A stretch of DNA of 64,000 nt from Escherichia coli (GTDB lineage: Bacteria > Pseudomonadota > Gammaproteobacteria > Enterobacterales > Enterobacteriaceae), in assembly GCF_003334335.1 (NCBI RefSeq), contig NZ_QOWQ01000005.1. One strand, 5' to 3'. Positions 40,619 through 52,272 of this stretch are shown piece after piece. The translations under genes and the position numbers were made by a program. The notes below the pieces were generated by a model. That model was not told where the DNA came from, searched no databases, and was given only the letters and a program-made list of their open reading frames with translations. Position 1 is the stretch's first letter. Each line of letters opens with the position of its first letter.

Positions 40619-41599
40619 TTGTTGAAATATAGAAACTTCGTTGCTAAGAAGAAAAATTTATACCAAAACGAAGTGTCGTATGTTAAAAATTTACATATTG
40701 CACTATGCTTTGACCGTGAATTCATAATGCCAGCGGGTGTTGCATTATATTCAATTATATCCAACAATAGACATATTAACCTTCATTTTCACCTTCTTAT
40801 ATCAGGCATAGAAGAAAAGGAGTGTTCAGCTTTTTACGAACTAGAAGGTCCTAATACATCAATATCTGTATATTATATAACTGATAAATTTGACATTAAT
40901 CCGGATACATTAGTTCTTGGTATTCCTTTATCAACATGTTTACGTTTTTTAATCCCAGAAGTTATTGATGATAAAATAAATAAGATACTTTATCTTGACT
41001 GTGATGTCATATGTAATGGTCCTTTAGATGAACTGGTTGATTATAATTTAAATGCTGATATTGCATGTGTAATTCCAGATTCGCCAGAAATGCAAGAACG
41101 TGTAAAAAAATTAGACTATGGCATTGAGTTTATTAATTATTTTAATGCCGGGGTTATGTTTATTAATACCAGCGAATGGAAAAAAAATAATATAACACAA
41201 AAAGCGTTAGAAATGATCAACAGTGGAAAAGTATATAGGTATGCAGATCAGGATGTGCTCAATATTTTACTTAATGGACGAGTGCATTACCTTGATAAGA
41301 AGTACAATAATAAGACAACATTGTCAGTACGATGTGATGAAGAACAAAAAAACTTGCCCAACACAATTATAATGCATTATGTTACCCAGAATAAACCATG
41401 GTACAAAATATTTAGAGCACAAAATTTTGATCATTATTTTTCAAATTCTCCTTGGAAGAACCATAAAAGAAATCTAGCTCCATCATCAAGTGAGATTAGG
41501 TTAAAGTCTAAAGTTTTTTGGCTAGAAGGAAAATATTGTAAAGCCATTTCTTATTATTATAAGTATTTACTTGTTAAATTATTTGGCTTAAAGATTTAG
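40619..41599 (+). CDS. GT8-family LPS core glycosyltransferase in the slot after waaP
   Basis: 326-aa ORF with GT8 motifs YLDCDVIC (DxD) and HYVTQNKPW; very AT-rich; exact orthology (waaS-position gene versus an extra GT8 paralogue) not resolved. Confidence 0.6.
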   Translation: MLKYRNFVAKKKNLYQNEVSYVKNLHIALCFDREFIMPAGVALYSIISNNRHINLHFHLLISGIEEKECSAFYELEGPNTSISVYYITDKFDINPDTLVLGIPLSTCLRFLIPEVIDDKINKILYLDCDVICNGPLDELVDYNLNADIACVIPDSPEMQERVKKLDYGIEFINYFNAGVMFINTSEWKKNNITQKALEMINSGKVYRYADQDVLNILLNGRVHYLDKKYNNKTTLSVRCDEEQKNLPNTIIMHYVTQNKPWYKIFRAQNFDHYFSNSPWKNHKRNLAPSSSEIRLKSKVFWLEGKYCKAISYYYKYLLVKLFGLKI

Positions 41600-49952: not shown

Positions 49953-50999
49953 TCAGGCTTCCTCTTGTAACAATAGAGAGTTGAGTTCTTCCAGCACGCG
50001 CTGGGGAGTAATGTCGATCAAGCTCTGGTGATAACCTTCTGCGGCGTCGCCTTTGCGTACTTTGTGATAGCCGGTAATCAGGCGGATCACGCGCGCTTTA
50101 TGGGATAGCGGCGGTGTGAAGTCCGGGCTACTCGGACCATACAGGGCAACCAGCGGACGATTGAGCGCCGCCGCAACGTGCATCAGGCCAGAATCGTTAG
50201 TGACAATGGCTTTACAGGCTGCAATCAGGATAACCGCTTGATCAAGCTGTGTTTCCCCCGCCAGGTTCCGGCACCATGCCTGCTGCTCGGTATTTAAAGC
50301 GGCAAGAATCTCATTGCCCGCTTCATGATCTTTCGCCGAGCCAAACAGAACCACTTGATAACCTTCATCAATCAGTTGCTTTGCCAGTTCCGCATAGTGG
50401 TAGTGTGGCCAGCGTTTTGCCGGACCAAACTCCGCACCCGGGCAAAAACCAATCATTGGACGTTCTGATGAAAGCGAAAATTGATTACAGGTATATGATT
50501 TTTCACCTTCGCTCACCTGCAACTGCGGCCATAACAATGGCTGCGGCAGATCTTGTGCGGTACGCATAATACCTTTGTCATAGGCCAGCGCCACATAGCG
50601 TTCCACCATCAGCGGCCAGGCTTCTTTATCCAGCACACGCACATCGTTGAGTAAACCGTAGCGCATTTCGCCGCGCCAGCCGGTGCGATGAGGAATACCC
50701 GCGAAGAAAGGCACTAATGCGGATTTGAAGGAGTTGGGTAAAACGTAGGCGCGGTCGTAACGTTTTTCGCGCAGGCTATGACCCAGCTTGCGGCGTTCGC
50801 CAATTTCCAGCGCCCCGTGACCAAGCGGCATAGGAATGGCTTCGTTAACTTCCGGCATCCGCGATAATAATGGACGGCACCATGCCGGTGCCATCACGTC
50901 GATTATCGCCTGGGGATAGCGCGCCTGGAGCGTGCGATAGAGACTTTGCGACATCATCATGTCGCCAACCCATGACGGGCCGATCACCAATATTTTCAT
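49953..50999 (-). CDS. waaF: LPS heptosyltransferase II (GT9)
   Basis: 348-aa GT9 ORF MKILVIGPSWVGDMMM. Confidence 0.9.
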   Translation of the reverse strand: MKILVIGPSWVGDMMMSQSLYRTLQARYPQAIIDVMAPAWCRPLLSRMPEVNEAIPMPLGHGALEIGERRKLGHSLREKRYDRAYVLPNSFKSALVPFFAGIPHRTGWRGEMRYGLLNDVRVLDKEAWPLMVERYVALAYDKGIMRTAQDLPQPLLWPQLQVSEGEKSYTCNQFSLSSERPMIGFCPGAEFGPAKRWPHYHYAELAKQLIDEGYQVVLFGSAKDHEAGNEILAALNTEQQAWCRNLAGETQLDQAVILIAACKAIVTNDSGLMHVAAALNRPLVALYGPSSPDFTPPLSHKARVIRLITGYHKVRKGDAAEGYHQSLIDITPQRVLEELNSLLLQEEA

Positions 51000-51000
51000 T

Positions 51001-51082
51001 CACTTCATCCTTCAAGCTGTCTCTGCGGCGGCTGCCTGCGTTCACTCCGGTCACTTACTTTTGTAAGCTCCCGGAGATTCAC
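51001..51082 (-). repeat. ERIC (IRU) repetitive element at the hldD/waaF junction
   Basis: Minus strand reads GTGAATCtCCgGGAGCTTACAaAAGTAAGTGACcGGaGTGAaCG, matching the ERIC core (ERIC1R and ERIC2 primer regions) at about 39 of 44 positions. Confidence 0.75.
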
Positions 51083-52059
51083 TTAGTTGCTGCCTTGATA
51101 CTGCTCGAATGATTTTGTGAATTTACGTTGATGTCGCGATTCAGCCAGGCCATGTATTCCGTTACGCCTTCGGCAACGGTTTTGAACGGTTTGTCATAAC
51201 CCGCCGCGCGCAGATTCGTCAGATCTGCCTGCGTGAATGCCTGATAGCGGCCTTTCAGTTTATCCGGGAACGGAATGTATTCGATCTGGCCTTTCTTGTG
51301 ATAAGCAAGCGTTGCATCGGCTACCGCCTGGAAGGATTCCGCACGACCAGTACCGAGGTTGAAGATGCCGGAAACGCCATTTTCCAGGAACCACAGGTTT
51401 ACATCTGCCACGTCGCCAACATAGACGAAGTCGCGTTTAAAGTTCTCGCTACCTTCGAACAGTTTCGGTGATTCACCGTTATTAAGCTGGGTGTTGAGAT
51501 GGAAAGCGACGCTCGCCATGCTGCCTTTATGGCCTTCACGCGGTCCATAAACGTTGAAATAACGGAAGCCAACAATCTGTGAGTTTGCTTCCGGCAGAAT
51601 TTGACGAACATATTCATCAAACAGGAATTTCGAGTAACCGTAGACGTTCAACGGTTTTTCGTACTCGCGGGATTCAATAAAGTCGGAAGTGCGACCGCCG
51701 TAAGTGGCTGCGGATGAAGCGTACAGGAACGGGATTTCACGCTCCAGGCAGTAGTGCAGCAGCTCCTTGGAGTATTGATAGTTGTTATCCATCATATACT
51801 TGCCGTCCCACTCGGTGGTGGAAGAGCACGCGCCTTCGTGGAAAATCGCTTCGACATCGCCGAACTCTTCGCCAGCCATAATCTGGATCAGGAAGTCTTC
51901 CTTATCCATATAGTCTGCGATATTCAGGTCCACCAGGTTCACAAACTTGGTGCCGTCTTTCAGGTTGTCCACCACCAGAATATCGGTGATGCCTTTGTCA
52001 TTCAGGGCTTTAACGATGTTGCTGCCGATAAAGCCCGCGCCGCCGGTAACGATGATCAT
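51079..52059 (-). CDS. hldD: ADP-L-glycero-D-manno-heptose 6-epimerase, with a variant C-terminal tail
   Basis: 326 aa; Rossmann motif [11 protein letters not shown]; after ...WLNRD the ORF continues [17 protein letters not shown] and its stop codon lies inside an ERIC repeat. Confidence 0.9.
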
Positions 52060-52272
52060 AACTGTAACCTTCGAATTGTGGAGTCAGAGACAATCTCAGA
52101 CACGAATACTTCTATCATATCACTACACGGCGCTGGCTACAGCCATTCACCGAAAGTGGTATGCCTGAGCGTGATTTATGCTTATTTTTTGACAAGTACA
52201 AATGCTTCATCTCGTATCAACCTATGGCTTTCGGTAATATGTGCTGAAATTTGCCCAGTCTGGAGAATCGCG

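Follow-up and report, generated by a model that had tools for sequence, protein, structure and literature searches.

A polymorphic ERIC hairpin spans the hldD-waaF junction of Escherichia coli and may tie waaF translation to ribosomes leaving hldD

The genes hldD (also rfaD or gmhD) and waaF (rfaF) are neighbors on the minus strand of a 64,000-nucleotide (nt) stretch of Escherichia coli DNA from contig NZ_QOWQ01000005.1 (assembly GCF_003334335.1), which we call the window. They belong to one operon, hldD-waaF-waaC-waaL, and the hldD-waaF operon makes the inner-core heptose of lipopolysaccharide (LPS). A sequence-only reading of the window had noticed the core of an ERIC repeat between the two genes and an hldD frame that runs past the canonical 310-amino-acid (aa) end of the protein to a TGA inside the repeat. 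These observations hold, and the element proves to be a full-length ERIC, or IRU, that carries the end of hldD together with the start signals of waaF (Table 1). The same reading spoke of an essential heptose pathway operon; the pathway is right, and the adjective is too strong, given that deep-rough mutants are viable and hldD is not strictly essential in K-12.

The variant end of hldD is best seen beside K-12, where rfaD is 933 nt long and ends ...NRDA and a stop, 9 nt 5' of rfaF. With PDB entry 1EQ2 also 310 aa long and the NCBIfam HldD model ending at residue 309/310, the 310-aa endpoint given in that reading is correct. The window's HldD is identical to 1EQ2 over residues 1-309, and its codons 1-309 differ from those of K-12 by 29 synonymous and 0 nonsynonymous changes. 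Beyond them, the terminal Ala and stop of K-12 HldD give way to a 17-residue tail (3 linker codons and 14 ERIC codons), which is polar, of low complexity, and outside both the family profile and the crystal construct. On the mRNA-sense strand, the junction reads ...AAT CGC GAC / ATC AAC GTA / AAT TCA CAA AAT CAT TCG AGC AGT ATC AAG GCA GCA ACT AAG TGA / ATCTCCGGGAGCTTACAAAAGTAAGTGACCGGAGTGAACGCAGGCAGCCGCCGCAGAGACAGCTTGAAGGATGAAGTGA / ATG AAA..., and that of K-12 reads ...AAT CGC GAC GCA TAA GAGCTCTGC ATG AAA.... Aligned with each other, the K-12 junction has no ERIC and a 9-nt spacer, and its 15 nt (GCATAAGAGCTCTGC) stand where the window has 133 nt. The 3' end of hldD was indeed reshaped, as had been proposed, but by replacement rather than by clean insertion: relative to the ERIC-less alleles, 15 nt are lost, a 10-nt linker is gained, and no clean TA duplication is seen. 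RefSeq records the same 981-nt rfaD coding sequence (CDS) in strain L73 (WP_000587766.1), with an rfaF start that is also identical to the window's. Stop codons of all three frames lie at or inside the ERIC in this orientation, so any read-through from upstream would end within the repeat.

The repeat extends well beyond its core. Set against positions 2-126 of the 127-nt E. coli consensus as reprinted by Delihas in 2007 (PMC2759123), the window copy aligns without a gap, at 97 of 125 positions and in one orientation only, and six other E. coli copies align with it end to end. The degenerate core pattern of the family (GTGAATCCCCAGGAGCTTACATAAGTAAGTGACTGGGGTGA) matches once, at 51042..51082 and without a mismatch, where 100 shuffles give an expectation of 0. 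Given the full-length alignment, the TGA lies about 42 nt inside the ERIC, not within its first bases as initially read, and tail codons 313-326 are ERIC encoded; the repeat supplies 14 of the 17 tail codons as well as the stop that had been ascribed to it. ERICs are plentiful in the species: the 135-nt junction stretch, used as a query, finds matches in all 5426 complete E. coli genomes, 2-17 per genome with a median of 11, at 70-82% identity and 88-96% query coverage, and the copies examined all lie between genes. The outer arms form a 26-nt inverted repeat. The consensus has TATAC...GTATA at its termini, whereas those of the window copy are ATTCAC...GTGAAT, with GTAA adjoining on the left side and G on the right.

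Table 1. Features of the hldD-waaF junction, in coordinates of the window
Feature	Position	Strand	Basis
waaF (rfaF) CDS, 348 aa	49953..50999	-	Open reading frame (ORF) list; NCBIfam NF008162, 752 bits; RefSeq uses the same start
Full-length ERIC/IRU, 125 nt, Wilson & Sharp consensus orientation on the mRNA-sense strand	50998..51122	-	Consensus alignment; 6 other E. coli copies
Basal stem, 3' strand; holds the waaF Shine-Dalgarno and the A and T of its ATG	50998..51017	-	Inverted repeat, minimum free energy (MFE) fold, consensus structure and pair counts
waaF Shine-Dalgarno GAAGGA, ERIC derived, 8 nt 5' of the ATG	51008..51013	-	Sequence; paired in helix 2
ERIC central core inverted repeat (apical hairpin), GTGAATCTCCGGGAGCTTACAAAAGTAAGTGACCGGAGTGA	51042..51082	-	Degenerate core pattern, 0 mismatches; helix 5 with compensatory pairs
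hldD stop TGA, inside the GTGAATC start of the ERIC core	51079..51081	-	Sequence; TAA at the same position in Raoultella
ERIC 5' arm translated as HldD tail codons 313-326	51082..51122	-	Translation
Basal stem, 5' strand (helices 1-2)	51103..51122	-	Inverted repeat, MFE fold, consensus structure and pair counts
Linker ATCAACGTAA, 10 nt: codons 310-312 (I-N-V, 51124..51132) and first base of codon 313 (51123)	51123..51132	-	Alignments: neither K-12 spacer nor ERIC consensus
hldD (rfaD/gmhD) CDS, 326 aa with variant tail	51079..52059	-	ORF list; NCBIfam NF008360 matches residues 1-309
Canonical part of HldD, codons 1-309	51133..52059	-	Amino acid identical to K-12 HldD and PDB 1EQ2

Some other identities for the element can be set aside. 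The sole Rfam match is a full-length one to RF02818 (V_AS5, Vibrio antisense RNA AS5; 51001..51124, minus strand) at 29.6 bits and E = 3.5e-4, and membership was rejected because the gathering score is 96 bits; the Rfam family was probably built on a Vibrio ERIC-like repeat. A role as terminator or promoter was likewise rejected, as the element contains no intrinsic-terminator-like or sigma-70-like site and no T-run lies 3' of its stable hairpin. A terminator-like hairpin (10 pairs and a weak T-rich tail) occurs elsewhere, inside the waaF CDS at 50873..50895 (minus strand); the count of such hairpins is not above that in shuffles, and this one is probably there by chance.

How common is the allele in E. 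coli? A 451-nt junction probe is fully covered in 480 of the 5426 complete genomes (8.8%), and a junction-specific probe again returns exactly 480. In about 91% of the genomes, K-12 included, the probe matches in two pieces spanning 333 nt, and HldD has 310 aa with a 9-nt spacer behind it; K-12 and most of the species do not share the 326-aa protein. The usual tail of E. coli ends ...HSSGIKAATK, of which the ...HSSSIK... of the window is a one-base variant, and 9 contigs are recorded with exactly the window's HldD. Around the ERIC allele, the flanking sequence diverges from K-12 by 3-4%. The waaL type of the window is found in 501 genomes (481 at ≥99% identity), a count so close to the 480 ERIC genomes that the ERIC allele is essentially part of one waa/LPS-core haplotype. 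The gene content of this haplotype (waaB, waaY, waaZ, a WaaK-type N-acetylglucosamine transferase, and a GT8-like glycosyltransferase) suggests a non-K-12, perhaps R2-like, core type. The GT8-like gene is the fourth of the waaQ operon, an ORF of 326 aa from TTG (40619..41599, plus strand) with a weak 3-alpha-galactosyltransferase match (184 bits, below the cutoff), and it occupies the position of waaS in K-12.

E. coli Z1323CEC0014 (NZ_CP148426.1; locus L089, 1101-1275) has the same ERIC and linker in a different hldD haplotype and beside a K-12-type waaF (WP_000699219.1). The last ERIC base before its ATG is the K-12 base (GTGCATG), and the recombination breakpoints fall within ~29 nt and 12 nt of the cassette. 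This recombinant shows that the ERIC-linker cassette can move by short-patch recombination. On the other side of hldD (52060..52272), kbl is its direct neighbor, with yibB/htrL between the two in K-12. A link between the ERIC allele and the loss of yibB/htrL was considered and rejected, because kbl-hldD adjacency occurs in 3465 of the 5426 genomes, in two sequence classes (~100% and ~89% identity), and so is not specific to the ERIC.

The junction recurs in other genera. The 326-aa HldD protein was searched against one genome per species, and the best 80 of at least 575 loci were compared; as this ranking favors loci with a tail, the 19 ERIC-bearing loci among the 80 are not a frequency. All 19, from at least 19 other species, match E. 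coli in the site and orientation of the ERIC and in how it joins the waaF ATG (GAAGGATGAAGTGAATG). Their genera are Citrobacter, Enterobacter, Leclercia, Klebsiella, Raoultella, Phytobacter, Pluralibacter, Superficieibacter, Pseudocitrobacter, Buttiauxella, and one further genus (at least 11 besides Escherichia). Nine encode a 326-aa HldD that ends ...NSQNHSSGIKAATK with the 79-nt gap to waaF seen in E. coli. The others are shorter, at 324 aa (Buttiauxella noackiae, whose ERIC is 6 nt shorter), 321 aa (two loci with an internal deletion of ~15 nt), 316 aa (one locus; premature stop CAT->TAA), 314 aa (five loci; CAA->TAA), and 313 aa (one locus; TCA->TAA). The remaining 61 loci have GAC/CAG GCN TAA and then 1-16 nt, mostly GCGTAAGTATG; GCN TAA is always present in ERIC-less alleles and never in ERIC-bearing ones. 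Presence and absence alternate within every genus, and ERIC-bearing loci have hldD flanks that most resemble those of ERIC-less congeners, with third-position divergences of 0.06 (Raoultella ornithinolytica versus R. planticola) and 0.09 (window versus K-12).

Did each genus acquire its own copy? The E. coli junction ERIC is 86-96% identical to the copies at this locus in other genera, versus at most 82% to any other ERIC of E. coli, and the orthologues have in common variants that other E. coli copies lack, namely, the TTCAC...GTGAA ends and ACTAAGTGAATCTCCGG. Linker sequences grade around (C/A)GCGATACA, the pattern expected of an old sequence left to drift freely and not of recent transfer. 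One possible origin of the linker is an old duplication of CGC GAC GCA. Independent insertion in each genus is unlikely, since the copies share locus-specific variants and their linkers grade around one consensus, and the repeat that the sequence-only reading had taken for an insertion reads as an old allele rather than a recent, strain-specific event. The B. noackiae copy, with its consensus-type GTGTA ends and shorter length, may be separate in origin.

Several loci carry local variations of their own. In Citrobacter sp. Cu233 (locus L011, ~2440-2700), ~180 nt of a different palindromic repeat have inserted into the junction ERIC, and the hldD stop of its 313-aa form (TCA->TAA) lies 260 nt 5' of waaF. 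In three Buttiauxella loci, a 16-nt ERIC-less spacer, GCAGG(C/T)AGCCTGACGC, matches GCAGGCAGCCAACGC in the ERIC 3' arm with a score that at most ~1% of shuffles reach; it looks like the remnant of a lost ERIC, though the canonical GCA TAA stop precedes it. The idea is confined to Buttiauxella, as the ERIC-less spacers of other genera show no significant similarity to ERIC in the shuffle test. Klebsiella oxytoca and K. michiganensis have the linker and both ERIC arms in common and different central loop modules (GGAACATAGGATAACGATGTGAC versus GGAGCTGACTAAAGTCAGTGAC), the former also found in Phytobacter and B. noackiae, which suggests a core exchange between ERIC subtypes. Finally, the 90%-identity protein cluster that includes the 326-aa HldD (51082-52059, minus strand) has a 352-aa representative and contains Klebsiella entries named RfaF (339-352 aa), an odd membership for HldD that may come from fused or mis-called hldD-waaF ORFs.

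What, then, is conserved at this junction, the peptide or the nucleic acid? Twelve alleles, each from a different species, gave 66 pairs, over which mean identity was computed. It is 92.6% for the whole ERIC, with the 3' arm the most conserved segment (95.2%), followed by the 5' arm (91.1%) and the core (89.2%), versus 50% for the adjacent 9-nt linker, 67% for third codon positions of hldD, and 59% for those of waaF. The MFE fold of the junction ERIC has an energy of -55.9 kcal/mol (z = -5.9). In a consensus fold of 30 pairs, 98% of the cells are paired, versus 31-41% when the partners are slid by 1-3 columns, and compensatory double changes occur in 7 pairs, a number that 0 of 500 shuffles reach. 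Conservation of the ERIC sequence and of its hairpin greatly exceeds what neutrality would predict. At two stem positions G-U pairs prevail, as would fit a structure formed by the sense (mRNA) strand. The tail peptide presents a different picture. Its variable columns fall 2/4/4 on codon positions 1/2/3, with no third-position bias, and the nonsense change CAA->TAA is one half of a compensatory change from C-G to U-A. With premature stops in several lineages, the tail looks dispensable. In total, a conserved stem beside an unconserved and repeatedly shortened peptide leads us to conclude that the RNA (or DNA) element is the apparent target of selection, with the HldD tail a by-product.

The 3' end of the element deserves equal attention. 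The waaF start had been placed 3 bp beyond the repeat; instead, the repeat itself contributes the Shine-Dalgarno, and its terminal GTGAAT (51003..50998) ends in the A and T with which the waaF ATG begins. GAAGGA is invariant in 20 of 20 ERIC-bearing junctions examined. Other ERICs of E. coli also end at or near start codons: the gppA ATG overlaps the ERIC end at rhlB-gppA (O157:H7 EDL933; locus L007, 401-521), the acpH start is the next base after the queA/acpH copy (locus L004, 401-526), and the starts of yajO and cybC lie 14 and 22 nt downstream of the dxs-yajO and pmbA-cybC copies. Five of the six other E. coli copies examined are oriented to the downstream gene as at hldD-waaF. Judged from these arrangements, the 3' end of the ERIC, GAAGGATGAAGTGTAT(G), looks like a portable Shine-Dalgarno and start context.

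Based on these observations, we posit a mechanism in which the ERIC RNA would fold into a long hairpin whose basal stem sequesters the Shine-Dalgarno and AUG of waaF. In the MFE fold, the stretch of the 5' arm that is translated as HldD codons 313-319 pairs with the Shine-Dalgarno and with the A and U of the AUG. Ribosomes on the last codons of hldD would enter the 5' arm and unzip the basal stem, and the opened stem would transiently expose the waaF ribosome-binding site, so that translation of waaF would be coupled to that of hldD. Such coupling would preserve the tight link between the two genes that ERIC-less alleles reach by a spacer of 1-16 nt, and we speculate that the HldD tail would then serve as a runway for the ribosome rather than as a functional peptide. 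The energies computed for opening waaF positions -14..+5, with an assumed ribosome footprint of -15..+13 nt, one ribosome, and equilibrium, are in line with this proposal. Opening is predicted to cost 15.3 kcal/mol in the free ERIC mRNA, versus 6.8 kcal/mol at the K-12 junction, and to fall to ~3 kcal/mol with the A site of a ribosome on codons 314-323. For a ribosome at a hypothetical stop at codon 310, the predicted cost is 10.6 kcal/mol. For one on the real stop, codon 327, it is 10.4 kcal/mol, the ribosome having left the basal stem free to close again behind it. In the 20 ERIC-bearing junctions examined, the hldD stop is always at codon 314 or later and never upstream.

We consider an old, polymorphic ERIC junction allele, with a hairpin that would mask the waaF ribosome-binding site until ribosomes on hldD open it, to be the best explanation of these data, and we would give it a probability of roughly 55%; its mechanistic part is what we infer from the computed folds. 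A more far-reaching form of the idea, which we advance only tentatively, is that the element is a domesticated riboregulator. Here selection would have retained the hairpin over the whole age of the enterobacterial genera, translation of waaF, and perhaps also decay of the hldD mRNA, would depend on ribosomes running off hldD into the repeat, and the tail would be a runway selected for its position and not for its sequence. Presence and absence would be a polymorphism swapped as a cassette of <200 bp, in E. coli together with one LPS core type.

Several points weigh against masking and ribosome-driven opening as the explanation. The mechanism is one of thermodynamic folding, computed with an assumed footprint and a single ribosome at equilibrium, and since the stem can re-form when the ribosome sits at codon 327, any coupling must be kinetic or polysome dependent. 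Read-through into the repeat is no general requirement, given E. coli ERICs of the rhlB-gppA type whose upstream stop lies outside the element. The lack of stops before codon 314 is not statistically compelling, as we estimate a chance of ~0.24 that ~30 random linker codons contain no stop. The high conservation could in part come from the need to keep a waaF ribosome-binding site or from repeated short-patch transfer of the cassette. Lastly, about 91% of E. coli lack the element and thrive, so that any benefit is small or dependent on context.

Could the ERIC act on mRNA decay instead? In the model of De Gregorio et al., ribosomes block folding of the repeat and unmask an RNase E site in its 3' inverted repeat; at this locus, the hldD mRNA would then decay faster than the waaF-waaC-waaL part of the transcript. 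The configuration is that of the Yersinia class as later papers summarize it (PMC2229807, PMC3184786, and PMC10969869), namely, an ERIC over the upstream stop, cotranscribed within an operon. Moreover, the 3' arm is rich in A/U and in purines (GAAGGAUGAAGUGAAUGAAAAUAUU) and is the most conserved part of the element, and the stable hairpin, lacking a T-run behind it, is no intrinsic terminator. By analogy with the published Yersinia model, an effect of the ERIC on handling of the hldD-waaF mRNA is plausible. Decay and translational coupling are, however, not mutually exclusive: unfolding by the ribosome could also lay open an RNase E site and thereby shift the hldD:waaF mRNA ratio, and both effects could coexist. 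As the principal explanation, we regard decay as less likely than not.

The ERIC might also be a selfish or neutral passenger, a tolerated repeat resembling a MITE (miniature inverted-repeat transposable element) and kept because its 3' end offers a usable Shine-Dalgarno and start, with its conservation due to recent spread (by short-patch recombination or horizontal transfer) or to gene conversion. Presence and absence do flip between close relatives with near-identical hldD flanks, as in the Raoultella pair and in the window and K-12, and the cassette of Z1323CEC0014 has come to lie in another hldD haplotype with a K-12-type waaF. The large ERIC-less majority of E. coli fits a passenger as well, and so do the like arms and unlike loop modules of K. 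oxytoca and K. michiganensis, which suggest exchange between subtypes. Recent transfer would nonetheless have preserved the linker that travels with the ERIC, and the linker has drifted to 50% identity between genera while the ERIC stands at 93%. The compensatory substitutions, in addition, maintain the stem, and the locus-specific signatures shared across genera and missing from other E. coli copies argue against conversion by the resident pool of ERICs. In view of these points, we find a mere passenger rather unlikely.

A protein-level innovation, in which the 17-residue tail alters the stability, oligomerization, or localization of HldD and is itself selected, is very improbable. It would account for the near-identical ends of the 326-aa form in 9 other species and E. 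coli, and residues 1-309 are clearly under strong purifying selection, as the exclusively synonymous differences from K-12 attest. However, independent premature stops or deletion have cut the tail to 3-11 residues in at least 5 lineages in which the downstream ERIC nucleotides are still conserved, and one of these stops belongs to a compensatory base pair. The missing third-position bias and the position of this polar, low-complexity tail outside profile and crystal construct also speak against a selected peptide, and conservation of the ERIC-arm nucleotides fully explains the similarity of the tails. An assembly or sequencing error or an annotation quirk, for which there is no specific support, is refuted by the population data: the same junction stands in 480 independent complete genomes, RefSeq annotates 326 aa, the exact protein comes from 9 contigs, and the architecture recurs in other genera.

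ERICs are widespread as targets of PCR fingerprinting, and to our knowledge there is very little evidence that any individual copy has a function. The two coexisting alleles, with and without ERIC, in E. coli and in many genera amount to an unusually clean natural experiment on the function of a single copy. Should the coupling or decay mechanism prove true, recruitment of a MITE-like repeat for intercistronic regulation would be documented, and a variable, dispensable tail on a conserved enzyme would be explained. For annotation, the 326-aa HldD and the forms of 313-324 aa are genuine alleles and not errors, and within E. coli the ERIC comes close to a marker for one waaL/core type. The kind of repeat, C-terminal ERIC extensions of enzymes, and ERICs that overlap stops are all known, and the basic feature will not surprise a specialist. 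New are the locus, the double embedding in gene signals, the conservation across genera with covariation, and the presence/absence polymorphism tied to an LPS core type. In the searchable literature, which did not extend to the list of 14 non-K-12 copies by Wilson and Sharp, we found no description of an ERIC at rfaD/hldD/gmhD-waaF/rfaF.

The ERIC, IRU, or RU-1 repeats of the Enterobacteriaceae were reportedly described by Sharples and Lloyd in 1990, by Hulton et al. in 1991, and by Wilson and Sharp in 2006. The junction copy is like the rest of the family in being an imperfect palindrome of ~127 nt with a conserved core, a family with many copies in transcribed intergenic regions and strain-variable presence. 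It differs in that it replaces 15 nt of the ERIC-less allele without a visible TA target duplication, in that gene signals overlap it at either end (the stop and tail on the upstream side, the Shine-Dalgarno and ATG on the downstream side), and in that the orthologue can be traced across at least 12 genera, Escherichia included. REP/BIME and Correia/NEMIS repeats are likewise cotranscribed intercistronic hairpins that influence the expression of flanking genes, but they are other sequence families acted on by other nucleases (a block to 3' exonuclease for REP, RNase III for NEMIS) and have no sequence relationship to the junction ERIC. In classical translational coupling, as between the cistrons of RNA phage MS2 and in several E. 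coli operons, a downstream Shine-Dalgarno and AUG are paired inside the upstream ORF, as the computed fold predicts here; the difference is that the structure would come from a mobile repeat and not from native coding sequence.

Two further comparisons concern ERICs at the ends of genes. RU-1 fusions at gene 3' ends are described for the E. carotovora amidase ECA3499 and threonine dehydrogenase ECA0168, in a paper that does not list hldD (Delihas 2007, PMC2759123). As at hldD, the ERIC there lies inside the 3' end of an annotated CDS and replaces the normal stop with a C-terminal extension outside the conserved domain. Those fusions, however, read the opposite strand (the long RU-1 ORF YTRH...NSNY), and the HldD tail is in neither the RU-1 nor the RU-1f frame (YTRHISSC... 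and YSSYFKLH...), so that we regard it as analogous to an RU-1 peptide fusion and do not file it as one. The other parallel is the Yersinia ERICs that overlap or abut stop codons, for which, according to summaries of De Gregorio et al. 2005 (PMC2229807, PMC3184786, and PMC10969869), ribosomes are proposed to impede folding and thereby to unmask an RNase E site, with destabilization of the upstream transcript. The coupling that we propose would be the translational counterpart of that model. As in this class (the "B orientation"; J Bacteriol 187:7945), insofar as those summaries describe it, the ERIC at hldD-waaF sits in an operon over the upstream stop, with the hldD TGA 42 nt inside the element. 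The hldD-waaF element differs in that its 3' arm is also the ribosome-binding site and start of waaF, and the expected readout would be translational coupling in addition to, or instead of, decay by RNase E.

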